A stretch of DNA of 64,000 nt from Candidatus Jordarchaeia archaeon (GCA_018383815.1 JAHAWU010000002.1:2650-66649); one strand, 5' to 3'; counted from the stretch's first letter, positions 12,562 to 28,049 are shown. Made by a program: numbers and translations. Notes: generated by a model from the letters alone, not told the origin.

Positions 12562-12574
12562 GGAGGCCGCAGAA

Positions 12575-12937: not shown

Positions 12938-13083
12938 ACTTTTACAGACACCAACTACTATATTTATCATAATGTATGTACAGAAAACTAGAAACAAAAA
13001 TTTTTAAGTAGAAATAAAAAGGGTTTAACAGCCTCAAGCCTCAAAATAGTATGGTGCCCATTTGATTTTTACAAGGTGATTGG

Positions 13084-13503: not shown

Positions 13504-13510
13504 GTAGGGG

Positions 13511-14677
13511 ATGAGAGATGTTTATGTAATTGGAGTTGGCATGACAAAGTTTGGCAACTTCCCAATAAAGCCTGGAGTTAAAGAAATGGGGGAAGAAGCT
13601 TGCTTCAAAGCTATGAAGGATGCAAATGTGTACCCCAAAGATATTGAGGCAGGGTACTGTGGAGTTGTAGCAGGTGCCGGTGGCGCGCAAGGCCCCCTCG
13701 CAGGTAATTTAGCCATGAAGCAGGTGGGAGTAGTTGGTGTTCCGATAACTAGGTGTGAAAATGGGTGCGCTTCATCCTCCACCGCCTTCAGGGAAGCTTG
13801 GATATCAGTAGCAGCGGGTTTATACGATGTGGTTCTCGTTCTAGGTATAGAGAAGATGACTGGGCTTCCTACAAGAGAAATGCTTAAAGCCATGACTCAA
13901 GGAAGCGATTTGGAAATTGAGGGATTCATGGGGATGACTTTCCCCGGCGTATTCGGAATGATAGCAAATAGGCACATGAAGGAGTACGGCACAACTAGGG
14001 AACAAATGGCAATGGTTTCCGTTAAAAATCACCACAATGCCACAATGAACCCCCACGCCCACTACCCAAAAGAAGTATCCTTGGAAAAGGTTCTAAAATC
14101 ACCAATGATAGCTTACCCCCTAGGACTGCTGGACTGCTGCCCAATATCCGACGGCGCAGCAGCAGCGGTAATAGCAAGCCGAGATGTGGCAAAAAAATTC
14201 ACTGACACACCAATCAAAATTTTGGCAGCCGTCCAAAAATCAGGCACATTCCTGGAAAAGCTCAACGCCACAACTTTTGACATAACAGTAAGAACTGCAA
14301 AAGAAGCCTACAGAATGGCGAAAGTGGAGCCAAAAGACATAGACCTTGCGGAGGTTCACGACTGCTTCACGATAGCTGAAATCCTACACAACGAAGACTT
14401 GGGATTCTTCAAAAAAGGTGAAGGGGGAAAAGCGGTGGAAGAAGGAGAGACTCAAATAAACGCCAAAGTTTCAATAAATCCTAGTGGAGGACTACTAGCG
14501 AAGGGACACCCCGTAGGTGCGACCGGCGTGGCTCAGATCTGTGAGCTGGTCTGGCAGTTACGAGGCGAGGCTGGAGCAAGGCAGGTGGACGGCGCACAAA
14601 TCGGCTTAGCCCACTGTATGGGCAACTTTTCTCACGGAGATGGTGGAACCTGCAACGTAACCATCCTGGAAAGATAA
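13511..14677 (+). CDS. Thiolase (archaeal / SCP-x-type acetyl-CoA C-acyltransferase)
   Basis: 'VYVIGVGMTKFG', active-site region 'ENGCASSSTAF', C-terminal 'NPSGGLLAKGHPVGATG' and 'HCMGN..GG'. Confidence 0.85.
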   Translation: MRDVYVIGVGMTKFGNFPIKPGVKEMGEEACFKAMKDANVYPKDIEAGYCGVVAGAGGAQGPLAGNLAMKQVGVVGVPITRCENGCASSSTAFREAWISVAAGLYDVVLVLGIEKMTGLPTREMLKAMTQGSDLEIEGFMGMTFPGVFGMIANRHMKEYGTTREQMAMVSVKNHHNATMNPHAHYPKEVSLEKVLKSPMIAYPLGLLDCCPISDGAAAAVIASRDVAKKFTDTPIKILAAVQKSGTFLEKLNATTFDITVRTAKEAYRMAKVEPKDIDLAEVHDCFTIAEILHNEDLGFFKKGEGGKAVEEGETQINAKVSINPSGGLLAKGHPVGATGVAQICELVWQLRGEAGARQVDGAQIGLAHCMGNFSHGDGGTCNVTILER

Positions 14678-14708
14678 AAACAATTGAGCCAAATATGCTC
14701 TGTTGCAC

Positions 14709-14727
14709 TTATTTCTTTTTTATTTTG
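14709..14727 (+). terminator. Oligo-T tract, candidate archaeal terminator after the thiolase gene
   Basis: 'TTATTTCTTTTTTATTTT' begins about 30 nt after the stop at 14677. Confidence 0.3.
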
Positions 14728-14897
14728 AACCTTATTGGGCGAAATTTTTCTGTTAAATTAGTTCTCCCAGATGCTCGTACCTCTGGAAGTTTACTGGATT
14801 TTTTTCAGGGATCATTTTTGTGAGTTTCTCTTAAGATGATTATCCGTCCTAAGCGCTATTTTATTTTTATTGCTTCTTTATAAACCTCTACTGATAT

Positions 14898-15347
14898 TCA
14901 GAAATTGTTTTCAACCAGTTCATCTATTGATTTAAGGTGCTTTTTCTTGGAAATTAGTTGATTTCTGTATGCCAGCCTTAAGACATGTATTGTTCCATGG
15001 GGAGTTAGTTTTAATGTTTTGGCGGCCTCTCTGGTGTGTGTCTGATCCAAGAGTTGGGATGTCTCATTTTTTGCGAGGAGTAGAGCTTCAGCCTCACCTG
15101 CGTGGATTTTGAACGCTTTGGCTAATTTAGAAGCTTCATCTTCATTTATTTCTTCGAATCTAATCCAGCCTTCATTTATGGCTTCCTCGACAAGGTAAGC
15201 GTCAGGGTGGCCCTCAAGTTTCCCCCTTTCAACAGTCTACTTCCACACTTTATGAGATATAAATACTGTTTTGAATTTCTTCTGTAAAAGGTGAAGCATG
15301 TTAATCTTTGACAGATAAATGAGGGGAGTAGCGTTGGGGACTATCAT
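14898..15347 (-). pseudogene. DUF3368-type PIN-like toxin gene interrupted by an in-frame TAG
   Basis: My translation is MIVPNATPLIYLSKINMLHLLQKKFKTVFISHKVWK-[TAG 15237-15239]-TVERGKLEGHPDAYLVEEAINEGWIRFEEINEDEASKLAKAFKIHAGEAEALLLAKNETSQLLDQTHTREAAKTLKLTPHGTIHVLRLAYRNQLISKKKHLKSIDELVENNF. This is a 150-codon frame with one internal stop. Confidence 0.6.
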
Positions 15348-15520
15348 TGGCTGTCAGCAGCCTCAATGTCTTCCATAAGGTCGCGTAAATTTTACTGGTA
15401 CGGGATTCCCTTTTCTGCAGCCTTCTTAATCATTTCTCTCAGGCTGACATCGCACATTTCTGCAGCTTTTCAGAGGGTTATCTTTCCCTCACTTTGACAC
15501 CCCCCACGAATGAAGTTGGG
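15344..15520 (-). pseudogene. UPF0175-type antitoxin remnant with in-frame TGA and TAA and no start codon
   Basis: My translation is ...EGKITL-[TGA 15470-15472]-KAAEMCDVSLREMIKKAAEKGIPYQ-[TAA 15392-15394]-NLRDLMEDIEAADSQ. Its stop overlaps the ATG of the downstream PIN-like pseudogene (ATGA-type junction). Confidence 0.45.
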
Positions 15521-15596
15521 GGATTCTTGGAAGCTTTTTAAGGCCTCCAATGGTGTGCCACCGCCCAGTTAACGTGCCCTCCATTATAGACGGCAC

Positions 15597-15872
15597 CTAT
15601 CCAACACAAGTATATTTATCAATACGACGGCTTATTAAACTTTTTTTGGCATACATATTACATTGCGCCCGATTCATTCCCACGGCTAGAGTCAGGGGCT
15701 TTCTCGCCAACGCTTTGTAAATTTTTATTGCTTTCTGAGTTTTCCAGTCCCTAATGCCCAAGGATAAAATCATTTTGATAGCAGTGGATCTGTCAACTTT
15801 GAAGTTCTTCATATACTCCTCTATCTCATGAGCCAACTCCTCATCAATCCTGGCAGTTATAACAATAGTCAT
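15597..15872 (-). CDS. Small RHH/UPF0175-like putative antitoxin-type protein
   Basis: 'MTIVITARIDEELAHEIEEYMKNFKVDRSTAIKMILSLGIRDW' is RHH-like. The start is placed at the internal ATG. Weak call. Confidence 0.35.
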   Translation of the reverse strand: MTIVITARIDEELAHEIEEYMKNFKVDRSTAIKMILSLGIRDWKTQKAIKIYKALARKPLTLAVGMNRAQCNMYAKKSLISRRIDKYTCVG

Positions 15873-16166
15873 AAAAACCCACACGTATACAAATATAGGA
15901 AATTGTATATAGCCCTAACCATAACCACAAAAGATGACGTAGAATAGTTTGGTTAAGCCTCAAAAAAGAGCGTCTACAAAGCTCCTTACCTGAAGGCGTT
16001 ACGAGAGGAACCACGCCAAATAAATCCATATCGCCACCCGCAAGAAAGGGTATGAAAACCAATCTTCAAAAACAGTTTTAACCACAAATTTAACTTTTCA
16101 AATGCTAATAACCTCCTTAAGGTTTATCCTTAAGGTTTATATCTGGAGAGTGGTTTTGTATTTCTT

Positions 16167-16877
16167 ATGAGTCTCCGGGAAGAATTCTTGGAACTTTTGA
16201 AGAGGGACGAAGAGTTCAGATACACTGTCTTAGGTTACCTTGGGTTAGATGAGATAACCCGAAGAATGGATGCCTACCAGTCAACACAAACAAAAATCTG
16301 GGGGGACATTAGGGGCATCAAGGAAGACCAGCTCAAAATCTGGGAAGAGATTAAGGGACTCAGAGAGGAGCAGACAAAAATCTGGGAAGAGATTAAGGGA
16401 CTCAGGGAAGATTTTAACAAGATGTTGGGTAGAATGGAGTTGTTGGAGAAGGGCCATGTAGATATTAGGCAGACCGTGGAGGGGTTACGTTCTGAGCTTT
16501 TTGTGGGTTTTGATTCTATGAGAGTGTTTGTAGGGGTGAGTTTAGAGGAGTTTGTGAAGGTTTGGATGAGTGGCGTTCTTAGGGAGCGGGGAATTCTTCC
16601 AGTGGGGACCAGTTTAGATAGGGCGATAATAGATGGGGAGGAGATAAATCTTTTCTGTGAGGAACCCTTGATAGTTGGAGAAGTTACTGCCCACGCGGGG
16701 AGTGTCGAGGAAATATCTAAGCTTTTGAGGAAGGTTGAAGTTGCAAAGAAGAAATACAAGAAGGACCCCCGATACCTGTTTCTACGTGTCTTGACGGCTC
16801 CGAGTAGCGTGGCTAAAGAAATGAAAAGGCTAGCTAGAGTGAAGAACATAGACCTCGTAATAGGAAAGGAATCTTAG
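16167..16877 (+). CDS. Coiled-coil protein with a C-terminal restriction-endonuclease-like (PD-(D/E)XK-like) domain, DUF3782-like architecture
   Basis: The N-terminal half carries a 14-aa repeat (KIWGDIRGIKEDQL / KIWEEIKGLREEQT / KIWEEIKGLREDFN). The C-terminal 'DRAIIDGEEINLFCEEPLIVGEVTAH' resembles a D...E-x-K-type nuclease core. Tentative call. Confidence 0.45.
   Translation: MSLREEFLELLKRDEEFRYTVLGYLGLDEITRRMDAYQSTQTKIWGDIRGIKEDQLKIWEEIKGLREEQTKIWEEIKGLREDFNKMLGRMELLEKGHVDIRQTVEGLRSELFVGFDSMRVFVGVSLEEFVKVWMSGVLRERGILPVGTSLDRAIIDGEEINLFCEEPLIVGEVTAHAGSVEEISKLLRKVEVAKKKYKKDPRYLFLRVLTAPSSVAKEMKRLARVKNIDLVIGKES
16293..16418 (+). repeat. Three tandem 42-nt (14-codon) repeats inside the coiled-coil gene
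   Basis: Copies 2 and 3 (16335-16376 and 16377-16418) share 'AAAATCTGGGAAGAGATTAAGGGACTCAG' exactly. Copy 1 (16293-16334) is diverged. Confidence 0.8.
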
Positions 16878-17344
16878 ACCGCATACAAAAGGAAAAGAAC
16901 TAACATTTTCTAGTCAATATAATAATTATACCTGACCTGTTAATTAGATTCCGCCGATTTCAAATTTCCTTTACGCATCGAACTGTTCTTAAATTCTTTT
17001 TGCGTCCTATTTTGTGAGTTTTTAGTTGTCATTTAGGGTTACAGGAAAGAAGGAGACTTGCTTCTTTAAATGGTTAAAATGTTAGTGAAACTATTTCGGG
17101 GGGGATATTCTTTTCTGACGTTTCTGGAATCGACCCTGAAAATCACATATTTTTAAATTCTGACAACGCAGGGGTTTGACGAGGGATTACTCCTAGAGGC
17201 GACTCGGAAGAGGGAGGATTGTAATTAGACCTTGCAATGAGACTCTGGAGGGGCGAGCTGGAAATGAAGTAAATTTTTTCTGTCAGGGAATGCATCTAAA
17301 GTTTTTGTGGTGTGGGTAGCATGGGATGTATGTGGCGTGGTTGT

Positions 17345-17638
17345 TTACTTGATTTTTTTCGCGTGTTCTATTGCTCTTTTTTGTTGGTTTAGGGTGATGT
17401 TTCCGCGTATTCCTTTGTTTAGGAGTATTTCCAGCATACTTCTCAGGCTAACACCGGCAAGTTGTGCAGATTCTCCGAGGGTGATTTCTCCATCGCTGTA
17501 TAGTTTTGCAGCGTATTCTATTAGTCCTTCTCTTAGAAGTTTTCGTATGGCGGTGGATTCTTCTATGTCTTCCTTCTCTGCTGTGTAGGCTATGCCTTTT
17601 AAAATTTCTTCAGGTAATCTTATGGTTTTAGTTTTCAT
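17345..17638 (-). CDS. UPF0175-family antitoxin-like protein
   Basis: 'MKTKTIRLPEEILKGIAY...AAKLYSDGEITLGESAQLAGVSLRSMLEILLNKGI' matches the UPF0175 pattern. Its ATG overlaps the upstream ORF stop (ATGA). Confidence 0.6.
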   Translation of the reverse strand: MKTKTIRLPEEILKGIAYTAEKEDIEESTAIRKLLREGLIEYAAKLYSDGEITLGESAQLAGVSLRSMLEILLNKGIRGNITLNQQKRAIEHAKKIK

Positions 17639-18372
17639 TTTTCTTCTCCTCCTAATTCTTCCATGGCAAGGTGGTACTCCTCTTCGGAGACAAGATTTTT
17701 CAATTTCTTTATGATTTCTCTGGTCTTCTCCAAGTTTAACGCTCCTTTCCAATAAACATGGAGGATAACTGTAGATGGTGTGAGGTAGGGAATATTAATT
17801 GCGTCAATTATTCTTATGAATTTGGAGTCATCGCTGGACACCGCATCGAAATTTCCAGATTTGAACAGGCGGAAAGCGTCTGCTTCGCCTTCACCTAAGC
17901 CAAGGTTTTTTATGGGCGTAAAAAGTTTTTAGTGCAAGTCGCTGGATGGCTTCTTCAGACTGGGGCTTTGTGTTTTCTTCTGCATATGGTTTAGTTCTCT
18001 TCATTGATTCCCCCTTTTGCCGAAAGGAGCCCTAATAGAGCTTCTTTCCGGATGAAGTCTAACCCCCCTTTTTCTGGGGAACATTTGTCCCCAAACACGC
18101 CCCACATCCCAAAAATGCATTAAAAACTTTTTATGCCCTTTTTTATTTCTCCTTCTATGTCTGGATTCCTAGCTCACTCCTTTTCCTTAATTCTCTTTCT
18201 CTTCAAGTTTTCATCTATTTCAAAAGCGTCGGCAAAACCCTCCTTCTTCGCAACAGTAACGCATTCTTCCCTGACTTTAGGTTGAATGTATACTCAACAT
18301 TATCCAAAATTATATCTTTTACACCTACCTTAGTTACCTTGATGAGGGAGTCTGAGTTAATAACCAGTTTCA
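17635..18372 (-). pseudogene. Disrupted PIN-like toxin gene with N- and C-terminal fragments in different frames
   Basis: The N-terminal fragment from the ATG at 18372 reads 'MKLVINSDSLIKVTKVGVKDIILDNVE'. It then shifts frame to '...YIQPKVREECVTVAKKEGFADAFEIDENL'. The C-terminal fragment '...LGLGEGEADAFRLFKSGNFDAVSSDDSKFIRIIDAINIPYLT...' ends at 17635 and is preceded by an in-frame TAA. Confidence 0.4.
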
Positions 18373-18689
18373 TGTATTCTATTGTAATAATTTTCTTATA
18401 AAAACTTTCTATAAGAACTTTAATGTCTTAGAGAAAACAAATAAGGAATAACTCTAACAAGATTCATCAATTTTTGATTTAAAAAAATCATAACATAATA
18501 AAATAGAACTAGGACGAAAACCGATTTGTTCCTCAAACTCTTCCATTTTAATAGGATGTCTGTGCCCATATATTTAGAGATTTTACAGCCTTTTTCCGGT
18601 GGTTTCGTTTAACACACAGATATGGATAGAGTAGATACAAATCAATTGGCTCTTTTAAAATCGAACTATCCAAAGTAATGACTGTAACG

Positions 18690-20543
18690 CTAGATTTTTT
18701 CCAGAAATTTTTCTATTTCTTCTTCCGCGTTGTCCGCCCTGATGTATATTGGTACGTTTGCTAGTCCTGTGGCGATGTAGCTTGAGAGAAGCCAGTCTCC
18801 GGGCGTGAACTCCAGGGTTTTTTCCAGTATGTTTTTGTCTATCATGAAGGTGTTGCTGATTAGTCCTCGGTCGTAGGGTCGGGGTAGGGTGCTCACAAAG
18901 TAGGTGTGTAGTTGTTGGAGGGCGCTGGTGTTGAGGTGGGCTATTCTTTGGGTGGCTATGCATCCGCCCAACCCGTATTTCCTTCCTTGGCGTAGTAGTC
19001 TTTCGACTTCCTGGGAGCATTGTCGGTCTATTCCGGATACGTTTGCGGGGTTTGCTACGAATTCCTGTGCTTCGTCCCAAACGAAGAGGATGTAGGGTTT
19101 TACTTTGAATTCTCTTTTTCTTTGGGCCAGGATGCTTTGGGTGAGGTCTATGACTATTTGTTTTATGGTTGGTGGGTCACTTATGGTTATGCTGATGAGT
19201 CGTGTTTCTCCTTCTACTAGTTCTTGTATGTCTTCTGTGGTTAGTCCACCGCTGGTGTCGGTCTCTGTTTCGTGGAAGTAGCGTGTCATGCGTTGTCTGG
19301 TTTCAAACCAGCCGTATAGTCCGCTTTTTTCGTGGATTTTGTAGGCTGTGACTATGGCTGGTGCTGCGTTTACCAGTTTGGTTACGAATTCTCGATCTAT
19401 TTCGTCGGTTTCAATGTATCCTTTTTCGGTCATGTATTTTGCGGTTAGTATTTCTACTTCGTTTAGGGCTTCCACATAGTTCAGTCTGCCCTGATTTTCT
19501 GACTTTAGGAGGGCTACACTGTCCAAGAATTCTCTAAAGGTGGGGATTCTCAAAAATTCCTGCACATAGTGAGTAACCCTGTTTTGGGAAAATATTTTTT
19601 CCATTCCCTTAATTACTCGGGGGTCATCTTCGAACATTTTGGGTTTAACAATTGAGTTATAGAATTCTCTGGCATTCCCGGCTTTGTGTTCGAGAATAAT
19701 TTTTGAGGGTATTCTCTTGTCTGCGAACAAGTCCATTAAAAGGAAGGGGTACTCGCAGGATATATCAAAAATCACCACTTTAGTGTCCGGGGTATGTATA
19801 AGAAGCCTTCTCAAAATATTGGAGAGCATGTTACTCTTTCCCCCACCCGTGAAGGCGAAAATTCCGAAGTGGTACCTCACCAGAGAATCATAGTCAACAT
19901 ATATGGGAATATTTTCAGCTGAAGCCTCAAACATCTTAATAGTTCCAAGGCGAGGATCCTCCCAGGGATTACTGCTTGTTTCCTCACAACTGAAGCCCAG
20001 TTTCTCTAACACTTTGCGGTTGTACATGTCTTTAATCATTTCCTTGTTGAGAATGTAGACCCTCTCTCCAACAACAGGGTAGGAAAAGCCTCGCTCATAA
20101 CTAAATACGTGGTTCTCACCTGTCACTAGGTCATAGTTTATGGGTATTGCTGATATTTGAATAATCATTGTGGATTTGTCACTGGTCTCCCAGTCGCCAA
20201 CTGATTGTTCAATGACTTCAAACTGCAGAGGGTAATACTGGTAATCCTTTAAGCCTCTTAAGCCGAAATGTTCGGGCCAGAAACGCAGAATCTCCATTAA
20301 TGTGTATCTTTTTTTATCCGCCTCTTTGGTTCTGAAGTTCCTCACAGCCAGAAGCATTCCTGAGTCGATGAGCCTCATGAGGTCTCGGTCATACTCGGCA
20401 AGAACCCGGCAGGTGTAGGGCGAAGATGTTCCAAATTCTTCGCTGGAGGTTTCACTAGTTGCAATTACTCTTCCTAGCCGGGCCCTGAATTTTCCATCGA
20501 AATCGGTAAAATAAATTTTAAGCTCCTCTTCTGAGCCGCTCAA
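18690..20543 (-). CDS. HerA/FtsK-superfamily (DUF87-type) ATPase
   Basis: Walker A 'FGIFAFTGGGKSNMLSNIL' and Walker B 'YILFVWDEAQEF', with an N-terminal barrel-like region. The likely start is the TTG at 20543, 7 nt after a GGAGG SD; the GTG codons at 20549 and 20561 are alternatives. It overlaps the 3' end of the upstream NurA-like gene. Confidence 0.8.
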   Translation of the reverse strand: MSGSEEELKIYFTDFDGKFRARLGRVIATSETSSEEFGTSSPYTCRVLAEYDRDLMRLIDSGMLLAVRNFRTKEADKKRYTLMEILRFWPEHFGLRGLKDYQYYPLQFEVIEQSVGDWETSDKSTMIIQISAIPINYDLVTGENHVFSYERGFSYPVVGERVYILNKEMIKDMYNRKVLEKLGFSCEETSSNPWEDPRLGTIKMFEASAENIPIYVDYDSLVRYHFGIFAFTGGGKSNMLSNILRRLLIHTPDTKVVIFDISCEYPFLLMDLFADKRIPSKIILEHKAGNAREFYNSIVKPKMFEDDPRVIKGMEKIFSQNRVTHYVQEFLRIPTFREFLDSVALLKSENQGRLNYVEALNEVEILTAKYMTEKGYIETDEIDREFVTKLVNAAPAIVTAYKIHEKSGLYGWFETRQRMTRYFHETETDTSGGLTTEDIQELVEGETRLISITISDPPTIKQIVIDLTQSILAQRKREFKVKPYILFVWDEAQEFVANPANVSGIDRQCSQEVERLLRQGRKYGLGGCIATQRIAHLNTSALQQLHTYFVSTLPRPYDRGLISNTFMIDKNILEKTLEFTPGDWLLSSYIATGLANVPIYIRADNAEEEIEKFLEKI

Positions 20544-22434
20544 ACTCACCCCTCCGTTCACGGAAGCTGGTCATATAGTAAACAAACTTCTTTAAATCCT
20601 TGTTTGTCATAATCCAATCCTTCGTGGTGTCAATAAGATTCTTGAACAGGCTATAGTTCCACTTGGCCACATTATCCGCAATAAAGAGCGGTTTATTGTG
20701 CCCAAAAATCTCGGGGATGGTGGAACTGGTGGTGGCCGCCAAGGTCACCAGGATGAGGTTCTGAAGCTCATTCCGGATTTTCTCATTTCTGAGTATAAAG
20801 ACATTTACGGGTTCTTCTCCCACATAAATCTGGTGGAAACGCTCAATGTTCTCCTCTCTCATGTCATACTCTGCGTAGGCTAGACGGTCTATGAGCAGAA
20901 CATTGCTCCTCACCTTAGGGTCGTGCTCCGCCGCCTGCAGCTGAACATAGGTTTTAAGAAACAACCTCTCCATAGTAATCTTGTTTTTCCTTGCGCCCCT
21001 CACATACCTGGGACCCCTATCTGGATCCGGAACAATGGTGGTGAATGCCGAGTCATACTCAATCAAGCTCCAGGGAGGATGCAGTGTATCACAACAGTTG
21101 AAGGAGTAATGTTGCAGAAGCATGCGGTCAGTGTTGGGAAGATTTGAGAACAATTCAGGCGAAACCACACATCCGAAAATATTACAGTTTGAGCATACTG
21201 GAATGAAGTGGTTTTTAAAATCGCTGGCCGCAGTATCCTTAGTGATTCCCAGAAGGAGAACCCTGCGTTTCCAGCACTCCTCAATGAGCATATAGAAGCA
21301 GAAAAGTGTGAGAAAAGCAATATCCAAAGTAGACAGGTACTGGGATGAGCCGTCCTCACGCTCAATAATCATCCTAATTCCCGTAGTCGACTCCTCAATT
21401 TCCTCCCTAAAAATGCGTTCACCCAAAGTTCTAACCAGTTTTGAAATCCTATCCCAAGATTTCCTGTAACGGGGATTAAGGCGATACTTGGAGTGGCTCT
21501 TAAGGACTACTTCTTCTCGAACCAAACTGTTAAGGTAGCGTCCCACTCTCTCCTCTCGAAGCGCATCCTTAATTCCCAACTCCTCGCAGATCTGTTTCAG
21601 GGTTAGTGGGGAATCCTTCCTTTCCAAGAGGAGAATGAGGCTGTGCCTCAAAAAGTCTCCCCTGGCGGGTGGAAGCATTAATTCGGGATTCGAGACATGG
21701 TAGCGACCAATAAACAAATCATTCTTATCTATGGGTTCGCCATCCACTTTGAATCCCAGAATGGCGCACTTTTTATCCCAGTAGGTTTTCTTTGAGGTTT
21801 CCTTGGCAATGGCCCGCTGAGTACCCGAGAGGGAGCGGTCCATGAAAAGAATTCTTACTGGATCATTGGGGTCTGTTACCAGAAGGTAGGCCAGATAATA
21901 TTCGGCGAAAGTCATAATCCAATCCGCAATCTGTGAATTATCTGCGATTTCTTGCTCAGATAGGGGCTGAGTTAACAAACCCTCCGGGTCGTCTCCCTCG
22001 CTGAAAAAGGTCTGGTCAATTTCGGGAACCTCATTAACATAAACTGGAACACAGCTGGAAATTCCCCTCCCCTCCTCTATATGCTTAGTGTAGTAATCCA
22101 CAGTGGGTCTAGAGTCCTTATGGAACTGGATTTCGCCACTTGCAGCATAGGCTCCACCAAAAAAGAGGATAAAGTCGAAAAGCCTCTTTGAATACTCGGT
22201 TCCATCTACAGCCGCAAACCTAACCCGCTCAGAGCCAAAAAAGTCAACCGCGGTACGGTAAGCCCTTTCAAAGTCTAAATCAGTAACTAGAAGTTTAGAG
22301 ATAAAAGTGTTTAACTCGTCAATTTGGGAGAAGCGATTCTTGTAATCCGTAAGCTGCCTCTCAACACCCTTCAACAAAATATTGCTTATCCTACTAATCT
22401 GAGAACTCAGGAAGGATCTTCCCACTACAATCAC
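20518..22434 (-). CDS. Large NurA-domain-like nuclease with an inserted winged-helix segment
   Basis: NurA-like motifs appear in order: 'RFAAVDGTEY', 'ILFMDRSLSG', 'LLLGITKDTAASDF', 'NTDRMLL' and 'HNKPLFIADNVAK'. The central 'LTLKQICEELGIKDALREERVGRYLNSLVREEVVLKSH' looks like a wHTH. The gene is coupled to a HerA-like ATPase. The assignment rests on motif pattern only. Confidence 0.6.
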   Translation of the reverse strand: MIVVGRSFLSSQISRISNILLKGVERQLTDYKNRFSQIDELNTFISKLLVTDLDFERAYRTAVDFFGSERVRFAAVDGTEYSKRLFDFILFFGGAYAASGEIQFHKDSRPTVDYYTKHIEEGRGISSCVPVYVNEVPEIDQTFFSEGDDPEGLLTQPLSEQEIADNSQIADWIMTFAEYYLAYLLVTDPNDPVRILFMDRSLSGTQRAIAKETSKKTYWDKKCAILGFKVDGEPIDKNDLFIGRYHVSNPELMLPPARGDFLRHSLILLLERKDSPLTLKQICEELGIKDALREERVGRYLNSLVREEVVLKSHSKYRLNPRYRKSWDRISKLVRTLGERIFREEIEESTTGIRMIIEREDGSSQYLSTLDIAFLTLFCFYMLIEECWKRRVLLLGITKDTAASDFKNHFIPVCSNCNIFGCVVSPELFSNLPNTDRMLLQHYSFNCCDTLHPPWSLIEYDSAFTTIVPDPDRGPRYVRGARKNKITMERLFLKTYVQLQAAEHDPKVRSNVLLIDRLAYAEYDMREENIERFHQIYVGEEPVNVFILRNEKIRNELQNLILVTLAATTSSTIPEIFGHNKPLFIADNVAKWNYSLFKNLIDTTKDWIMTNKDLKKFVYYMTSFRERRGEFERLRRGA

Positions 22435-22838
22435 CCAACACCAACAAGACGGATTATCCTAATAATTTAATGGATCAATCTTCAAGAGCGCCTGAATCCC
22501 CAATGCCAACCGTTACAATAGTAATATTGCTCCACCCAATTTAAAGGTTTCATAAATTAATTTACGAAAAATTTTTCGGGAATTTATAGTCTCCAAATTT
22601 GCAAAGAATACTGATGAAGTGGATCCCATTTGAGCTATTTTTGACTATTATTGGGATTTTAAGTATTGATTGTGACTTTTTAATATTGTTCCATGTTATT
22701 TCATATAGTAAACCTTTTTACAATTTTCAGGTAGATGACCCCCTCCAATTAACCATATGTATACATAAGGTAACATATTATTCTCAAATTTCCATATGTA
22801 ACATTTGGATAATCTTATTATACCATAAGGAAGAACCG

Positions 22839-23960
22839 GTGAAACGCCAAAAATTGGCAAAAAATTTGAGAGGATTGAAAAAGTTGTCTTCGTTACTCAC
22901 CAGTAAAGGAATAGCCATACTTCTAATAGCATTGTTGGCAGGAGTTGGTGTGGGCACCTTCATCATTGCCCCAGTCGTGACCAGCAACCAACAACAGCAG
23001 CAAAACCTAATTTTAGCTTATACTTTCGGTCAAGCGTCCGGCTCACTATACATTCCCGGATCCACAACGGTGCTGCCTATAACAACCGAAATGGCCCCCG
23101 CCTTCACAGCGCGCAACCCCTTCATAACCATTCAAGCAGCAGGAGGAGGCTCAGGTGCAGGGTACAGCGCAATAATTAACCAGCAAACAGACATCGCAGC
23201 GGCATCCAGAGAACCCAAGAGCACAGAAATTGCCAGCGCCACCGCAGCTGGTGTAAAACTCATAACATGGATCATCGGCGCAGACGCCATAGTGGTAATA
23301 TACAACAGTCAAGGACTGGGAGTGAGCGCAGTGAACTTAACCAGAGCACAAGTGGGAGAGATATTTAACGCCTCAGCAAAAGGAACCGGGCCAGTCTACT
23401 GGGACGCCTATGTGCCAGGGGCTCCCCATGTACCAATTACCGTCTTCATTAGGGAGGATGGTTCGGGTACCAGAGGCGATTTTGAGAGCGACTTCCAAGT
23501 GGACAAAACTGGCACATGGCCTGGAGTCACCAAAGTAACTTCTAATGGTCTAATGATATCCAGCGTTAAGGGTCAGCAATACTCTATGGGATACGTGGCC
23601 CTATCCTATTACACGGCAGAAGTGGCAGATCCCACCTCACCAATTAGGGGAGTAAACGTTGCCTACAATTCATCCTACGACTATGAAACTCCAGACATTA
23701 ACGGTGTCATATCTTGGGCAAGGGCGCAAATCACCAATCCCGGCGTGTATACTGGGGGCTATTTTGCTTGCAGATGGTTGTACTACATAACTGATGGTTT
23801 TCCAGAGCCGGGGTCTCTAATTGACAGGTACCTGGGATTCGTTTACAGCAGTGCCGGTCAAGCCATAATTGACGAGGTAGGCTACGTAAGCGCAGAGAAA
23901 GCAGGTCTAACTACAGGGAAACCATACTGGTACTACTCCACACCCATAGTATGGAACTAA
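22839..23960 (+). CDS. pstS: Phosphate ABC transporter substrate-binding protein PstS
   Basis: 'GSTTVLPIT...ITIQAAGGGSGAGYSAII..QTDIAAASREP' is a PstS/PBP2 signature. An N-terminal TM/signal segment is followed by a Q-rich linker. The start is placed at the in-frame GTG after an AGGAAG SD; the upstream part of the track ORF is AT-rich leader. Confidence 0.8.
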   Translation: MKRQKLAKNLRGLKKLSSLLTSKGIAILLIALLAGVGVGTFIIAPVVTSNQQQQQNLILAYTFGQASGSLYIPGSTTVLPITTEMAPAFTARNPFITIQAAGGGSGAGYSAIINQQTDIAAASREPKSTEIASATAAGVKLITWIIGADAIVVIYNSQGLGVSAVNLTRAQVGEIFNASAKGTGPVYWDAYVPGAPHVPITVFIREDGSGTRGDFESDFQVDKTGTWPGVTKVTSNGLMISSVKGQQYSMGYVALSYYTAEVADPTSPIRGVNVAYNSSYDYETPDINGVISWARAQITNPGVYTGGYFACRWLYYITDGFPEPGSLIDRYLGFVYSSAGQAIIDEVGYVSAEKAGLTTGKPYWYYSTPIVWN

Positions 23961-25190
23961 ATGACATTCGGAAACCCTCTCTCAATTTTTTTGTTTTGTT
24001 TGAGGCGGTGGAATATGCGGTTTGACGGGAAGTTTAGGGAGATGTTCAAGATTGATTTTGGAAGTGGTGAAGTATCAGGGTCTTTGGAGTATATTTTTAC
24101 GGCTGAGGATTTCAAAAAAGTGGGATTAAAGATTAGGGAATTTTTGAGGAGGTTTTTTTCGCCTGAGGGTTTAACTGCTCTTTGTGCCTTTTCGAGTCTT
24201 GTGATTACTGGTCTCATATTTTTCTTCTTGTTTAGGGAAGCCTTTCCCATGTTTCAAAAGATGAGCTATGGAAGCAGCTTTCTCCACTTCTTGTATGTGT
24301 TGAACCCCGACTTTTTTGGATATGCTATTGACAAATATGGTTTAGTTTGGTTTAGTGGTGGGAACCCTTTTTTGGGTTTTTTGAATTTTGTTTCTGGGGG
24401 CACTTGGGCTCCCAACTCTTATGAGTTTGGGATTCTGCCCCTCATTATAGGTACCTTAATTGTGGTGGGGGGTGCGGTTGCCATCTCGCTTCCCATTGGA
24501 GTTTTATCCGCTGTGCACTTGGCGGAGTACTGTTCTTTGAGGGTTAAAAATGTGCTGAAGCCCGTAATTGAGATGCTGGCCGGGATACCCTCAGTTGTTT
24601 TTGGACTGGTTGGTCTTACTCTTGTGGTACCTTTGATACAGAATGTTTTTCATCTGGATAATGGGCGAACTGCTTTGTCTGCGGCAATAGTTCTAGCCAT
24701 TATGATTCTTCCCACTATAATTAGTGTTAGTGAGGATGCTATTTCCGCTGTTCCTCGGGAATTTAAAGAGGCTTCCTTCGCTCTGGGAGCTACACACTTC
24801 CAAACGGTTCGCAAAGTGATACTGCCAGCCGCCGCTGCGGGTATTGCCGCCGCCGTGGTTCTAGCAGTGGCTCGCGCTATTGGCGAAACCATGGCAGTCC
24901 TGATGATTGCCGGAAATTCGCCCTTCACAGTTTTATATCCTAACTATTTTCCCCTTCTGCCAGTGCTGGATAAATTTGGCTTTTACTTTAAGGAACTGTT
25001 TTTGGATCCCATTATGCCAATGACCGCTACCATAGCTGCGGAAATTGGTGAAACCTCTTGGGGAAGCACACATTACCAAGCATTGCTGGCAGTGGGATTT
25101 GTCCTATTCATAATCACTTACATTATCAACTACATTGCTGAAGTCACAATTTTCAGATTTTCTAAAAAGGTGAAAAGAAGGAGGACCTGA
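23961..25190 (+). CDS. pstC: Phosphate ABC transporter permease PstC
   Basis: Polytopic membrane protein with an EAA-type loop, 'SVSEDAISAVPREFKEASFALGATHFQTVRKVILPAAAAGI'. The ATG lies directly after the pstS stop. Confidence 0.8.
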   Translation: MTFGNPLSIFLFCLRRWNMRFDGKFREMFKIDFGSGEVSGSLEYIFTAEDFKKVGLKIREFLRRFFSPEGLTALCAFSSLVITGLIFFFLFREAFPMFQKMSYGSSFLHFLYVLNPDFFGYAIDKYGLVWFSGGNPFLGFLNFVSGGTWAPNSYEFGILPLIIGTLIVVGGAVAISLPIGVLSAVHLAEYCSLRVKNVLKPVIEMLAGIPSVVFGLVGLTLVVPLIQNVFHLDNGRTALSAAIVLAIMILPTIISVSEDAISAVPREFKEASFALGATHFQTVRKVILPAAAAGIAAAVVLAVARAIGETMAVLMIAGNSPFTVLYPNYFPLLPVLDKFGFYFKELFLDPIMPMTATIAAEIGETSWGSTHYQALLAVGFVLFIITYIINYIAEVTIFRFSKKVKRRRT

Positions 25191-25191
25191 A

Positions 25192-26112
25192 ATGAAGAAA
25201 CTTAAAGAAGAACTAAAAGGCATACCTCTAGGAGAAGCTAAAATAAGAAACATACTGGGAGACGTGCTGATAGGCATCCCAACCTTTCTAGCCGTACTAG
25301 CCTTCCTCATAATTTTAGGAACAGTGGTTTTCTACGGTTGGCCCACACTCACACTCAATTTTCCAAGCTTTCTCACCAGCAGCCCCATCCCCAACACTGA
25401 CCTGAGACTGGGAGGAATAGCGCCCATGATTTTTGGAACCTTCGCCCTGGTTGTGGGAGCCATGATAATAGCAATACCACTGGGGGTCATGTCATCCATT
25501 TACATGTCAGAATACTTGGCCCAAGGAAAACTAAAATCATTCATAAACCAAGTGGTCAACAACTTGGCAGGAGTCCCCTCAATAGTTTTTGGACTATTCG
25601 GCCTATCCTTCCTACTACGCTACTTAAACATAGCGGAGGGAAGCCCAAGTCTGGTTTCGGGCTGGATAGTGCTGGGATTCATGGCCCTACCCATAATAAT
25701 AAAATCCACAAACAATGCACTGGAAGCCGTACCCAGAGAATTCAGGGAAGCCAGCCAAGCACTGGGAGCAACCAAGTGGCAAACAATCACCACAGTAACC
25801 CTCCCCCTAGCCTCACCAGGAATCTCCACAGGAACCATACTGGGAATAGGACGCATAGTGGGAGAAACCGCAGCCATACTATTCATAGCCGTAGTCGTAT
25901 CCCAATCTAACTACTTTCCCACAACAATATTTGATCCAGTCATGGCCCTAACCTACCACATCTACTACATGGCAGTTGAAAGCCCCTACGCGTCACAAAC
26001 CCTGGGAATCCAACACGCAACCGCCCTCGTACTCATGACCCTAGTACTACTATTAAGCGCAGCAGCCATATACATAAGATACAGAGCCCAACAAAGAAAA
26101 AGAGGATGGTAA
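25192..26112 (+). CDS. pstA: Phosphate ABC transporter permease PstA
   Basis: 'NALEAVPREFREASQALGATKWQTITTVTLPLASPGI' is the permease signature. It is the second permease of the cassette. Confidence 0.8.
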   Translation: MKKLKEELKGIPLGEAKIRNILGDVLIGIPTFLAVLAFLIILGTVVFYGWPTLTLNFPSFLTSSPIPNTDLRLGGIAPMIFGTFALVVGAMIIAIPLGVMSSIYMSEYLAQGKLKSFINQVVNNLAGVPSIVFGLFGLSFLLRYLNIAEGSPSLVSGWIVLGFMALPIIIKSTNNALEAVPREFREASQALGATKWQTITTVTLPLASPGISTGTILGIGRIVGETAAILFIAVVVSQSNYFPTTIFDPVMALTYHIYYMAVESPYASQTLGIQHATALVLMTLVLLLSAAAIYIRYRAQQRKRGW

Positions 26113-26479
26113 GAAGCAACTTAGAAATTGGGCAAGCTAGGAAGGAAATGTTTAGTCATACTAGCATCATTAGAGAGAAGAAGGGATTAGAAAATAATTT
26201 ATGAGTATCGAATTGGTCACGGAGAGGACTCATATTTTTAGGTTTGAGGTTGCAGGTGAATCAACTTTTCGCATGAAAGATTTTTCAATTTGCGTGCCCA
26301 ATTGGATAAACATTGCCTGTTTCTTTTTGTTGTCTTCAAATTTTTTGGGAGAAGTTTTTATACCTCATTATATAATTTTTAGCTAGGTTTCAAATACAGG
26401 AGCTGGCTAGCTGAAAGCTGGGTAATTTTATGGTCTGAGGCGATTTTGGTTTCACCTGTTTTGTGGTGGTGTACTTTTG

Positions 26480-26872
26480 ATGAGTGTTGTTGAGAAAGTT
26501 GGAGCGTGTCTGGAATCAAACTGCAATGTTGTTTTTGCCTATGTTTACGGCTCCTATGCGAGAGGGATGGCTGGAAGGTTTAGTGACTTGGATATTGCAG
26601 TTTTCCTTCGAGATAGTGGACATGAGAGGTACATGGAGGTGCTATCAGAGCTTCCAGTGGACATAGATGTAGAGGTTGATGTTAGAGTTTTGAATGACGC
26701 TCCACCCCTTTTCAGATACAATGTTATTAGGGAAGGAAAGCTATTATTTGTTAAGGATAAGGGGGTTCACGAAGAGTTTGTCTACGATACTCTTGTAACG
26801 GCGTTGGAATTAAGGGAGACGCTGGGCAGAATGAGGGAGGAGAGATTGAGGAGGATTCTTGATGCTCTTTGA
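26480..26872 (+). CDS. mntA: MntA-type nucleotidyltransferase (antitoxin of a HepT/MntA type VII TA pair)
   Basis: 'GSYARGMAGRFSDLDIAVF' NTase motif; about 130 aa; overlaps the downstream DUF86 gene. Confidence 0.8.
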   Translation: MSVVEKVGACLESNCNVVFAYVYGSYARGMAGRFSDLDIAVFLRDSGHERYMEVLSELPVDIDVEVDVRVLNDAPPLFRYNVIREGKLLFVKDKGVHEEFVYDTLVTALELRETLGRMREERLRRILDAL

Positions 26873-27282
26873 AACGGTTAGCAGTGCCATTAAAGTTTTT
26901 AGAAGACCTAAAGATGAAGAGTGTTAGGGAATTAGAAGGGGATTCCACTTTGCTTGGAGGTTTTCTGTGGCATCTTTATTTGGCAGTGCAAGGCTGCATA
27001 AATATTGCTCTCAAAACCATTTCGAAACTATCTCTTAGAACACCTGAAAGTTATGCTGATGCATTCACAGTTCTTAGTGAGGAGAAGCTGATACCAGAGG
27101 AGTTAGCCAAGAAACTTACTGCTATGGCGCGCTTCAGACATATCCTGGCACATGTCTACACCAAAATTGATTTAGACCGAGTACACGCCGTATTGCATCA
27201 CAACCTGGCGGACATAAAAGAGTTCCTAAAAGTTTTAGCCACAAAACTCCAAGAAAAGAAAATAGATGTAAGCCAAATCTAG
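26869..27282 (+). CDS. hepT: HepT-type HEPN (DUF86) toxin
   Basis: R-x4-H motif region 'MARFRHILAHVY'. The TTG start overlaps the mntA stop (TTGA). Confidence 0.8.
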   Translation: MKRLAVPLKFLEDLKMKSVRELEGDSTLLGGFLWHLYLAVQGCINIALKTISKLSLRTPESYADAFTVLSEEKLIPEELAKKLTAMARFRHILAHVYTKIDLDRVHAVLHHNLADIKEFLKVLATKLQEKKIDVSQI

Positions 27283-27575
27283 CCAGCCAAAAAAACATAG
27301 TCACACAGACAAAGGATCTGAGACTGCGCCCAGATAGTTCTGTCGGAACTGGTTTTTAGTTTGCTAGGTAGCACGCAAGAAGTAGGAATAATCGTTAAAT
27401 GAATAGAATTTGGCGACCTAGAACATTCTCCACACCTATGTTTCTAACAAGATCCACCTTCACCACGTCCTTTATGAATCTAAAACCCATATAATTATTG
27501 TCTGAGTACATATAGCTCCTCGCTTTCAATAAGACGCTAAACCAAGAAACAACACCTTTGGATATGCGATAAATT

Positions 27576-28049
27576 TCAGAATGCGAGGTTGTAGTTTTTG
27601 TTTTTCAGAAAATCGGTGAATTCTCTAAAATCATCTGTTTCCGCAAGCTCGTAGAAAACGGTTTTAAACCCGCTTTTCTCAAACCCTTTATCTGGGGTGT
27701 ATATTTCTGTTAGATTTAAACGCTTCATGACCGCGGAGCTTATGAGATCCGATAAACCCAGGGGAAGCATTCCATACATATTGCAAGCATTCTCCTGATC
27801 CTCTAGGGTTGGCGGGATTATGTCAAGTGAGTAAAGGGACCTGAGGGCTTTAATGAAGATGGGAAGTGCGTTAGCCTTGTAGTGGGAGAGCCATATTAAC
27901 ACTTCGTCTTTGACAAGAGTTGTTGTGACGGCTGGCTCCATGTTTTCAATCCGGTATAGAATGTATCCACTGATAGCTGCCTCCAGAGATAATCCCTTCT
28001 TAGAGGCAGACATCCACTTTATAAAAACCGGAGCATCAACGAACCTCAC
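27576..28049 (-). CDS. vapC: PIN-domain VapC-type toxin
   Basis: About 157 aa; 'RFVDAPVFIKW' at the N-terminus with a distal acidic region 'YTPDKGFE'. It lies immediately downstream of an AbrB-type antitoxin gene. Confidence 0.7.
   Translation of the reverse strand: MRFVDAPVFIKWMSASKKGLSLEAAISGYILYRIENMEPAVTTTLVKDEVLIWLSHYKANALPIFIKALRSLYSLDIIPPTLEDQENACNMYGMLPLGLSDLISSAVMKRLNLTEIYTPDKGFEKSGFKTVFYELAETDDFREFTDFLKNKNYNLAF

Follow-up and report, generated by a model that had tools for sequence, protein, structure and literature searches.

A winged-helix NurA-family nuclease and a HerA-family ATPase in Jordarchaeia: resident DNA-end processing or defence?

A gene pair for a NurA-like nuclease and a HerA-like ATPase, surrounded by toxin-antitoxin (TA) genes in a Candidatus Jordarchaeia archaeon, raises the question of whether the two proteins form a defence module carried in a TA island, as a preliminary description had proposed, or a DNA-processing machine resident in its host. 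The window referred to throughout is the whole stretch of DNA analysed, 64,000 nt (64 kb) long. The features of the pair are the following.

18690..20561, minus strand: HerA-family ATPase/translocase gene, 623 aa from GTG 20561 or 617 aa from TTG 20543 (ORF, Pfam and fold)
19059..19091, minus strand: Walker B ILFVWDEAQEF, aa 491-501, with Asp496 and Glu497 (invariant in both HerA alignments)
19830..19853, minus strand: Walker A FTGGGKSN, aa 237-244, with Lys242 (invariant in both HerA alignments)
20518..20555, minus strand: gene junction, with GGAGG 20555-20551, TTG 20543-20541 and the NurA stop TAA 20520-20518
20518..22434, minus strand: gene for the 638-aa NurA-family nuclease ('long NurA') with a winged-helix insert (ORF, Pfam and Foldseek)
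20662..20703, minus strand: GHNKPLFIADNVAK motif, candidate fourth metal ligand Asp587 or His579 (from conservation; compare Pfu His411 and Tm Glu280)
21466..21672, minus strand: winged helix-turn-helix (wHTH) insert inside the NurA fold, aa ~255-323 (Foldseek, profile and weak Pfam matches)
21823..21909, minus strand: helix of Glu178 and strand of Asp199 (FMDRS) (invariant, spacing as in Pfu NurA)
22198..22212, minus strand: AVDGT motif, predicted catalytic Asp77, corresponding to Pfu NurA Asp51 (invariant residue, motif order and spacing)
22461..22470, minus strand: A/T-rich TTAAATTATT, possible archaeal TATA box 27-36 nt upstream of GTG 22434 (from sequence only)

The operon and its products

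The two large overlapping minus-strand genes first described are both confirmed as ORFs (638 aa and 623 aa), with all the quoted nuclease and HerA motifs present. The proposed herA start also holds: TTG 20543 lies 7 nt after the GGAGG and gives a nurA/herA overlap of 26 nt, which becomes 44 nt if GTG 20561 is used, and across 80+ orthologous loci the herA start lies ~29-44 nt before nurA ends. The overlap suggests translational coupling, for which the TTG is a plausible start, and transcription from the putative TATA box could produce an operon mRNA that is leaderless or has a short leader. No GC anomaly is seen at the locus. The pair is very probably an intact, co-oriented and overlapping two-gene operon, encoding a 638-aa NurA-family (RNase H/PIWI-fold) nuclease with an inserted winged helix and loop, followed by a HerA-family ring ATPase.

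From the perspective of the nuclease, the NurA-like identity ascribed to it is borne out by profile, fold and catalytic residues. The Pfam NurA profile PF09376 matches the protein with 27.5 bits (cut-off 21) across aa 72-591, which corresponds to the whole domain (profile positions 2-253 of 254). With its AF2 model (pLDDT 75, pTM 0.81) as a query, Foldseek returns NurA chains at all of ranks 1-10 (3taz, 9x1m, 2ygk; E 1.8e-7 to 2.3e-5, prob 1.0), with TM scores against solved NurAs that stay low (0.3-0.55) because of the inserts in the NurA fold. No match to solved NurAs was found at the sequence level by sequence and profile searches, and none of the PADLOC models matches the protein.

The nuclease motifs run in the order AVDGT (aa 75-79, on the first of the long strands in the AF2 model), FMDRSLSG (197-204), GITKDTAAS (396-404), TDRMLL (435-440) and PLFIADNVAK (within aa 578-591). 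The 21 aa between Glu178 and Asp199 are identical in number to those between Glu105 and Asp126 of Pfu NurA, whose active-site residues D51/E105/D126 are taken from PMC3300031. D77, E178, D199 and D587 are invariant both in the alignment of the window pair's own branch and in the distant-family alignment; His579 is invariant in the own branch only, Asp587 family-wide. Judging by order, secondary-structure placement and spacing, the metal-binding Asp/Glu/Asp and His/acidic set of NurA appears to be conserved. The winged helix that had been read as an insert is confirmed as such, and solved NurAs lack it: the region gives local Foldseek matches to the wHTH regulators MotA, MarR, IclR and ZitR (prob 0.97-1.0), its profile matches the N-terminal wHTH of SloR, and its Pfam matches are weak (PF0610-like_N, Phage_rep_O). 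Orthologues bear source names such as 'winged helix-turn-helix domain-containing protein' or 'Lrp family regulator', and a disordered loop is also inserted into the nuclease fold.

The HerA/DUF87 assignment of the downstream protein is likewise supported, by the Pfam DUF87/HerA HMM (58 bits), by the Walker A and B motifs and by an N-terminal barrel plus a RecA-like core. Among PDB entries, its profile scores best with SIR2-HerA (8wiv, 94.6 bits), followed by Sso HerA (85) and Tko HerA (77), while Foldseek searches with its AF2 model (pLDDT 76) place Tko and Sso HerA on top (E 1e-19), then defence HerAs. PADLOC HerA models match it with up to 119.6 bits, the top one being PDLC01055, 'HerA, Type III coevolved'. 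This match, together with documented CRISPR-linked HerA/NurA pairs (PMC3396285, PMC6546367), would suit an accessory pair of CRISPR type III systems, of the Pyrobaculum nurA-csm6-herA kind. However, the match is partial (best stretch aa 442-611) and has no PADLOC counterpart in the nuclease, no CRISPR array was found in the window, no cas or csm6 gene is among its annotated ORFs, and neither recurs in orthologous loci. A CRISPR accessory role is thereby largely refuted by context and is very improbable.

Family distribution and genomic neighbourhoods

The family to which the pair is assigned, 'long NurA + HerA', is uncharacterised, and three of its branches are considered here. The own branch comprises Freyarchaeia/Jordarchaeia/Borrarchaeum and Bathyarchaeia (218 GTDB species genomes), and the sister branch Nitrososphaeria and other Thermoproteota (136 GTDB species genomes); comparison by eye of the 80-locus lists of the two revealed no isolate name in common. 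A third, distant branch is spread patchily over many bacterial and archaeal phyla. In a neighbour-joining tree, the Asgard sequences (n=11) group as sister to those of Bathyarchaeia (n=71). herA lies directly downstream of nurA in ~75/82 own-branch loci, ~75/80 sister-branch loci and essentially all distant-branch loci that extend far enough; most exceptions are loci at a contig end or loci where the HerA match is weaker and truncated. With the patterns used, the viral contigs of IMG/VR yielded no relative.

The following neighbours of the pair in the window were identified by Pfam.

17345-17752: UPF0175
26477-26872 and 26869-27282: MNT and HepT
27576-28049 and 28050-28301: PIN and MazE/AbrB
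28854-29195 and 29289-29795: HEPN and MNT
29953-31368: Arch_ATPase with DUF234

The flanks thus contain the UPF0175, HEPN/MNT, VapBC (PIN-MazE/AbrB) and Arch_ATPase genes listed in the preliminary description; the 'PIN remnants' reported beside UPF0175 find no support, as the adjoining ORF 17635-17841 has no Pfam match. The TA genes vary among close relatives: one genome (L009, 92% nt identity) lacks window positions 23425-29536 and 4536-18635, and another (L012) lacks 27285-28840 (VapBC) and 14676-17295. In these relatives, TA genes are insertions and deletions around a stable nurA-herA anchor.

Across the own and sister branches, the pairs stand alone beside core metabolic genes, in arrangements that are syntenic across species. 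In Bathyarchaeia the pair adjoins a 2-oxoacid:ferredoxin oxidoreductase (POR) operon, with downstream synteny in 39-44 loci; synteny around the pair also holds in Nitrososphaerales, and in Freyarchaeum deiterrae a DNA ligase directly adjoins it. Mean pairwise identity is 73% for the NurA-like protein and 79% for HerA, and the medians of the neighbouring PorB and PorA are 82% and 76%, so that the pair evolves about as slowly as the adjacent pyruvate-oxidoreductase genes. Recurrent defence neighbours with a patchy distribution, expected of defence-island cargo, are found in the distant branch only. Core-genome contexts, slow evolution and TA insertions and deletions all speak against reading the TA surroundings as the mark of a defence module, and the part of the original proposal that rested on them is not supported.

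Resident machine or immune nuclease

A conserved chromosomal position in several hundred archaeal species argues for a resident DNA-end-processing machine rather than TA-island cargo. We regard the pair as most likely a DNA-end translocase-nuclease serving genome maintenance in Freyarchaeia/Jordarchaeia and Bathyarchaeia, although our confidence in this role is only about even; Nitrososphaeria and other Thermoproteota have the sister branch. Held with the same even confidence, and as part of this role, is the view that the TA genes around the window pair are later, variable insertions outside the system. By analogy with solved HerA-NurA complexes, a HerA hexamer would dock onto a NurA dimer and, using ATP (Walker A K242, Walker B D496/E497), would feed duplex DNA, starting at a free end, into the channel of NurA, where the predicted metal site (D77, E178, D199 and D587 or H579) would cut the strands; a contribution to DNA recognition or to gating is probable for the winged helix. 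Like RecBCD in bacteria, the pair may also degrade linear foreign DNA.

Several observations count against resident maintenance. Linkage to mre11-rad50 is absent: no such gene is found among the large ORFs of the window (Pfam scan and crude motif screen), in agreement with the preliminary description, nor in ~240 related loci, bar two isolated Mre11-like hits in a crude motif screen. HerA scores 45.5 and 36 bits against the NCBIfam repair-HerA equivalogs NF040819 and NF040937, far below their cut-offs of 970 and 800, and NCBI names its orthologues only 'ATP-binding protein'. In Freyarchaeia the DNA on either side of the pair is hypervariable, which resembles defence hot spots. Finally, a 1.2-Mb Bathyarchaeota chromosome (L037) carries an in-frame stop in the nurA-like gene and has lost herA, so that at least one genome can do without the pair.

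This pseudogenised copy also fits the originally proposed role, a dedicated anti-virus or anti-plasmid module in which the wHTH-NurA/HerA pair recognises and degrades invading DNA and the TA neighbours form a defence island. The same role is favoured by the TA and HEPN/MNT genes found on its flanks both in the window and in F. deiterrae, by the top PADLOC and PDB matches of HerA (the type III-coevolved model and SIR2-HerA), and by the distant branch. In that branch the pair is part of cassettes that also contain DpdA and a DUF6884/DpdC-like gene (39/80 loci) or a C5 DNA methylase (8 loci); the DpdA is bona fide (PADLOC 407 bits), the HerA of the DpdA-linked branch matches PDLC01055 with 311 bits, and one member (L169) is carried by an element that also has an integrase, HNH, two TGT genes and MazG. 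In these cassettes nurA-herA looks like a restriction arm, and such embedding in DNA-modification cassettes speaks for restriction as an ancestral or a parallel role. The defence idea keeps the support of the distant branch while losing that of its local context. Against it, genes for modification, sensing or any other defence function are absent within 10 kb of the pair, both in the window and in ~160 own- and sister-branch loci, which leaves self/non-self discrimination unexplained. Its distribution is lineage-coherent, syntenic and single-copy, with very conserved sequences, unlike typical defence cargo; TA insertions and deletions occur independently of it, and its nuclease has no PADLOC match. 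A dedicated defence module is possible but rather unlikely.

A related proposal makes the pair the restriction arm of a modification-based system and places the gene for the modification enzyme at another site in the genome. Such an enzyme could be a DNA methylase or an unlinked transglycosylase of the DpdA type that draws on the preQ0 pool of archaea, and the winged helix would read the mark. The exchange of partners (DpdA/DUF6884 or C5 methylase) beside the same nuclease-ATPase core in the distant branch is consistent with this, and TdpABC, described below, is a possible precedent. Searches with HMMs built from the distant-branch neighbours speak against it, since they detect no DpdA, DUF6884 or C5-methylase homologue in any own- or sister-branch locus, with 8-10 kb around each pair covered, or anywhere in the window. 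One Bathyarchaeia MAG, moreover, contains both an own-branch pair (L038) and a separate, complete DpdA-linked pair (L128), which suggests two distinct systems. We consider this proposal doubtful, at long odds.

Broader in scope, and improbable though somewhat less so, is the view that the pair represents, in a stand-alone archaeal version, an undescribed class of wHTH-NurA/HerA restriction machines. The DpdA- or methylase-linked distant branch would be the nuclease arm of compact 7-deazaguanine (DpdA + DUF6884) or 5-methylcytosine modification-restriction systems, and the pair of Freyarchaeia/Bathyarchaeia a fixed, chromosomally anchored immune nuclease that would tell self from foreign via its winged helix, by a mark made by unlinked genes or by DNA-end or topology cues. 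If true, this would be a case of a defence system turned core gene.

Comparison with known systems

Canonical archaeal HerA-NurA (S. solfataricus, P. furiosus, T. kodakarensis; 2ygk, 3tal/3taz, 4d2i, 9x1l-9x1p) shares both folds with the window pair, as well as the Asp/Glu/Asp and His/Asp metal-site residues and the adjoining of nuclease and ATPase genes. It differs in the length of NurA (319-433 aa versus 638 aa), in lacking the winged-helix insert and disordered loop, and in belonging to a repair operon, from which the window pair is set apart by the absence of mre11-rad50 linkage. The stand-alone NurA-HerA of Deinococcus-Thermus is a two-gene nurA-herA unit, as here, and is likewise not known to be accompanied by mre11-rad50; its NurA is of a different subfamily and is not known to carry a wHTH insert. 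PMC9960219 and PMC5448004 connect this bacterial unit with the biology of T. thermophilus and with the resection of double-strand break ends.

CRISPR type III-coevolved HerA/NurA (Pyrobaculum nurA-csm6-herA; clusters 57/58 of Shah et al.) is likewise a paralogous nurA-herA outside the repair operon, but neither CRISPR nor cas or csm6 genes lie near the window pair. In the case of TdpAB (8wfd/8wet), the entry 8wfd contains TdpAB with AMPPNP and DNA; Foldseek aligns its TdpA chains A/C/F with the HerA model at E 3e-16 to 1e-15 and gives, for the NurA-like model, a weak match to chain G (E 0.056). We take TdpA to be a hexameric HerA-like translocase and TdpB a NurA-like nuclease, the two forming the restriction arm of TdpABC. 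The profile match to TdpA is only 31 bits, and the (phosphorothioate) modification chemistry of TdpABC differs. SIR2-HerA/Nezha and DUF4297-HerA resemble the window HerA in fold and in sequence around Walker A (8wiv, as above), whereas the effector here is NurA-like, with neither SIR2 nor DUF4297, and the distribution is conserved and chromosomal.

Finally, likeness to the Dpd 7-deazaguanine system (dpdA-K) is limited to the distant branch, as the window pair has no adjacent DpdA, DUF6884/DpdC-like gene or C5 DNA methylase. Among the genes flanking distant-branch pairs, canonical dpdB and dpdD-K were not noticed; in these cassettes, DpdA and the DpdC-like/DUF6884 gene flank the long NurA-HerA, which occupies the place expected of the restriction arm.

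The nurA-like/herA operon and its products

The pair consists of two overlapping minus-strand genes, as the preliminary description had claimed. Both genes are intact, and the elements of the operon are placed as follows:

20518-22434, minus: nurA-like gene, 638 aa (ORF call)
18690-20561, minus: herA gene, 623 aa from GTG 20561 (ORF call), overlapping the nurA-like ORF
20555-20551, minus: GGAGG, Shine-Dalgarno-like site for herA
20543-20541, minus: TTG start of herA, 7 nt downstream of GGAGG, giving 617 aa
20520-20518, minus: stop codon of the nurA-like gene (sequence read)

The overlap amounts to 26 nt with the TTG start and 44 nt with GTG 20561. Reading of the sequence bears out the GGAGG site, the 7-nt spacing and the shorter overlap proposed earlier, and all the motifs that had been quoted for the pair are present and in the order reported. 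GC content across both genes (0.41-0.46) is like that of the remainder of the window.

The upstream protein had been described as NurA-like with a winged-helix insert, and profile and structure comparisons agree with this. The Pfam NurA profile is matched at 27.5 bits (gathering score 21) and is covered as a whole, stretched across aa 72-591, and therefore the NurA-like fold carries large inserts. In the AlphaFold2 model (37 homologues, pLDDT 75, pTM 0.81) these include a winged helix at approximately aa 255-323 and a second, disordered insert at aa 120-167. Foldseek ranks 1-10 for this model are occupied by NurA structures only (E 2e-7 to 2e-5, probability 1.0), namely those of P. furiosus (3taz, 3tal, 3tai), the T. 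kodakarensis HerA-NurA complex (9x1l-9x1n) and S. solfataricus (2ygk), and other local matches are to the winged-helix regulators MotA, MarR, IclR and ZitR. The family profile finds a weak match to the winged helix-turn-helix of SloR in the PDB, and some database sources name the orthologues "winged helix-turn-helix domain-containing protein". The NurA assignment rests on Pfam and on the fold, because PDB searches with the protein sequence and with its family profile recovered no NurA; NCBIfam and PADLOC gave no match for the protein either.

Asp51, Glu105, Asp126 and His411 make up the metal site of the P. furiosus enzyme NurA (PMC3300031). Four acidic residues of the NurA-like protein are invariant both in close homologues and in relatives at 20-30% identity: D77 (in AVDGT, first long strand), E178 (next helix), D199 (in FMDRS) and D587 (in the IADNV helix). 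D199 lies 21 residues past E178, a spacing equal to that of Glu and Asp in the P. furiosus enzyme, and the four residues are the predicted active site. H579 is invariant in the close branch only.

The downstream protein is a HerA/DUF87-type ATPase with conserved ATPase residues, as previously stated, according to Pfam (DUF87, 58 bits), the PADLOC HerA models (best 119.6 bits) and its family profile against the PDB (SIR2-HerA 94.6, S. solfataricus HerA 85 and T. kodakarensis HerA 77 bits). Foldseek with a structure model built on an alignment of database proteins ranks T. kodakarensis and S. solfataricus HerA at the top (E 1e-19), with HerAs of defence systems from 6e-19 onward, so that repair and defence HerAs are not told apart by similarity of sequence or fold. 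Membership in the NCBIfam equivalog for repair HerA is ruled out by a score of 45 bits against a cut-off of 970.

Branches of the long NurA/HerA family

In a large protein collection, 1,133 homologues of the NurA-like protein were scored. The closest of them (83-97% identity) are proteins of Freyarchaeota, Jordarchaeia and "Ca. Freyarchaeum deiterrae", names that place the window in the Freyarchaeia/Jordarchaeia (Asgard). An exhaustive search of representatives at 50% identity yielded 350 clusters, many of approximately 600 aa and 25-37% identical. Because an alignment of all branches mixed was too diverse for locus scanning, it was split into two, A3 and A4. Scans of one genome per GTDB species, together with a midpoint-rooted NJ tree, resolve three groups: the branch of the window (A1), its sister (A4) and a distant, second major group (A3).

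Branches of the long NurA/HerA family and their genomic settings
A1: 218 species genomes; Bathyarchaeia (n=71 in the tree), sister to Asgard Frey-/Jord-/Borrarchaeum (n=11); pair stands alone, core-genome settings
A4: 136 species genomes; Nitrososphaeria, other Bathyarchaeia, Methanomethylicia, Brockarchaeota, Marsarchaeota; pair stands alone, syntenic in Nitrososphaerales
A3: 82 species genomes confirmed; scattered in bacteria (Cyanobacteria, Chloroflexota, Armatimonadota, Latescibacterota, CPR) and archaea (Methanosarcinales, Thermoplasmatota, DPANN, Nitrosopumilus, Bathyarchaeia, one Asgard genome); often in DNA-modification cassettes

The operon of the window is real and well defined, and represents a distinct and widespread long NurA/HerA subfamily. 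In all three branches herA directly follows the nurA-like gene, with few exceptions, chiefly at contig ends or where the HerA match is weak and truncated, and the longest ORFs typically overlap by approximately 29 nt in Bathyarchaeia and by 44 nt in Freyarchaeia. No isolate name is common to the A1 and A4 lists, compared by eye, and scans of IMG/VR viral contigs with A1 and A3 detected no relative. One Bathyarchaeia MAG (binchicken_co262_240) holds both a stand-alone pair of A1 type (L038) and a separate, DpdA-flanked pair of A3 type (L128). Since both loci belong to the same MAG, the two branches can coexist and are probably not functionally redundant copies.

Four A1 genomes carry approximately 2 kb inserted between the two genes:

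L005, 11909-13940
L013, 9645-11802
L030, 5420-7482
L044, 11917-14033

The protein encoded by the first of these inserts matches the Pfam family Cas12f1-like_TNB (TnpB-type), so that the operon is interrupted by an apparent IS element. At L037 (9809-11902), on a 1.2-Mb Bathyarchaeota chromosome (CP070791.1), the nurA-like gene contains an in-frame stop and no herA was found within the 10 kb read downstream of it, so that the pair appears to be decaying in this small genome. At two further loci (L024 and L034) the nurA-like gene is intact, but no herA adjoins it.

In Bathyarchaeia the pair lies among housekeeping genes. A 2-oxoacid:ferredoxin oxidoreductase operon, accompanied by GltD-like oxidoreductase and GNAT genes, recurs downstream on the opposite strand in 39-44 loci; in pairwise comparisons across 36 of these, the NurA-like proteins are on average 73% identical and the HerAs 79%, and PorB and PorA next to them have median identities of 82% and 76%. 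The absence of mre11-rad50 linkage noted earlier extends to related loci: no Rad50- or Mre11-like gene adjoins the pair, and a crude motif screen of approximately 240 loci gave two isolated matches only.

Variable flanks and the role of the pair

The proposal that the pair is a defence module drew its main contextual argument from the toxin-antitoxin (TA) genes around it. Pfam confirms most of the flanking genes then named, with the exception of the "PIN remnants" near UPF0175, which could not be confirmed:

17345-17752: UPF0175
26477-27282: MNT with HepT
27576-28301: PIN with MazE
28854-29795: HEPN with MNT
29953-31368, minus: Arch_ATPase (PF01637) + HTH + DUF234 protein, adjoining the HEPN/MNT pair

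Ordinary chromosomal genes make up the remaining window: those for beta-oxidation enzymes, acyl-CoA ligases, the pst transporter and aldehyde:ferredoxin oxidoreductase, and a DNA ligase gene at 44387-46144, 22 kb from the pair. Upstream of a BKACE gene (49653-50534), an intergenic array at 49498-49637 consists of tandem repeats 25 and 54 nt long that contain palindromes (TTTGCCATGAAAA...TTTTCATGC).

Closest relatives compared with the window by blastn
L009 (Jordarchaeia RPF2): 92% nucleotide identity; without window 23425-29536 and 4536-18635
L012: 85-88%; collinear; without 27285-28840 (VapBC) and 14676-17295
F. deiterrae (L011): 79%; pair directly adjoined by DNA ligase; PIN-MazE (not the one of the window) and a HEPN pair after herA

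Across these relatives nurA-herA is the constant anchor and the flanks vary. In Jordarchaeia RPF2 the Arch_ATPase region runs directly into the pair, and herA directly into a 3HCDH/ECH gene; the missing 23425-29536 corresponds to most of pst, MNT/HepT, VapBC and HEPN/MNT. Stretches missing from this genome or from L012 also hold UPF0175, thiolase and CoA-transferase genes. The TA genes are an overlay that comes and goes while the pair stays, which removes the main contextual argument for a defence module of a TA island; both flanks do show themselves to be insertion hot spots. Unlike the TA genes beside it, the Arch_ATPase/DUF234 gene is kept in both L009 and L012. A stretch absent from L012 includes a 236-aa ORF on the plus strand (16167-16877) with no Pfam match, in which a 21-nt (7-aa) tandem repeat at 16342-16411 (KIWEEIKGLRE-like) suggests a coiled-coil segment.

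HerA-NurA corresponds in archaea to the bacterial RecBCD/AddAB; to our knowledge, studies of it have dealt only with the short form that is linked to mre11-rad50. The locus represents a separate, well-conserved long form with a DNA-binding insert, which several hundred species of uncultured archaea carry, Asgard lineages, Bathyarchaeia and Nitrososphaeria among them; the searchable literature holds no experimental or comparative description of it. Judging by the solved complexes (PMC12977600, PMC5715905 and PDB entries), a HerA hexamer would dock on a NurA dimer and, starting at an end, pump duplex DNA into the nuclease, and the winged helix may add DNA recognition or gating.

We see an even chance that the pair provides a resident DNA-end-processing function, perhaps of dual use against linear foreign DNA as with RecBCD. 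In favour of such a role are a distribution that follows lineages, conserved gene order, slow evolution and the absence of any partner gene. One published account (PMC9960219) ties stand-alone nurA-herA pairs to DNA end resection in bacteria as well. Dedicated defence is a tentative reading that we consider rather unlikely: the hypervariable flanks, the missing mre11-rad50 linkage, the restriction-like A3 branch and the signs of dispensability at L037, L024 and L034 speak for it, whereas the turnover of TA genes around a constant pair speaks against it. Several nurA-herA paralogue pairs are found per genome in Pyrobaculum, one for repair, one CRISPR-linked and one of unknown role (PMC3396285), so that a second, non-repair pair would have a precedent. 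That the present pair is a CRISPR accessory is most improbable and was rejected on context, since the window holds no CRISPR array; it contains no tRNA or Rfam match either. Assigning the long pair to repair resection, to nuclease-based immunity or to both would inform on genome maintenance in the Asgard, Bathyarchaeia and Nitrososphaeria lineages, and on the exchange of parts between repair and defence machineries.

Modification cassettes of the distant branch and known systems

The reading of the pair as a TA-island defence module is supported only in part: the orthologue neighbourhoods of A1 and A4, with their stand-alone pairs, do not bear it out, and the distant A3 pair has the look of a restriction module. 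In 39 of 80 A3 loci the pair has one or two co-directional flanking genes, which fall into a single BLAST cluster. PADLOC identifies the flanking proteins as DpdA in 27 of 49 cases (best 407 bits, E 1e-122) and as PDC-M57A, a DUF6884 protein with weak DpdC/YaaA similarity, in 29 of 49, some being fusions. The usual order is DUF6884, NurA-like, HerA, DpdA, as in:

L094, 3206-8572
L119, 7482-12823
L157, 4747-10320
L162, 7518-13166
approximately 35 further loci (L088-L167)

The NurA-HerA relatives in these cassettes are 25-31% identical to the pair of the window and patchily distributed across many phyla of bacteria and archaea. A C5 cytosine DNA methylase (PF00145) replaces DpdA beside the pair in eight archaeal loci (L134, L142-L144, L146, L160, L163 and L166; e.g. 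L142, 7953-13519), followed in three of the eight by an HhH-GPD glycosylase. A JGI metagenome contig (L169, 1-17833) carries a 31%-identical pair on an element that also bears an integrase, an HNH nuclease, two TGT-family genes, MazG and many small ORFs, which suggests that this pair lies on a mobile element or provirus.

Exchangeable DNA-modification partners around a constant nuclease-translocase core are the logic of restriction-modification. With HMMs made from the A3 neighbours, homologues of DpdA or of the C5 methylase were found in none of the A1 and A4 loci and nowhere in the window; that the window pair is a restriction arm whose modification gene is unlinked is a reading to which we give little credence.

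The A3 cassette resembles a 7-deazaguanine modification-restriction system of Dpd type in compact form, and would be a new version of the Dpd system. Canonical Dpd systems comprise dpdA-B-C-D plus variable dpdE-K (PMC5699537), and no description linking NurA with DpdA, TGT or DUF6884 in a cassette was found in the searchable literature. The "BRC" system, with HerA/FtsK, TGT, GNAT and PglZ, has been described but is a different assembly (PMC12839542). A tdpABC phosphorothioate cluster also exists (PMC12914056). By Foldseek, chains A, C and F of the TdpAB structure 8wfd match the HerA model of the window (E 3e-16 to 1e-15), and the match of chain G to the NurA-like model is weak (E 0.056). TdpAB, taken as a HerA-like/NurA-like restriction pair, is a possible precedent for a NurA-HerA restriction arm.
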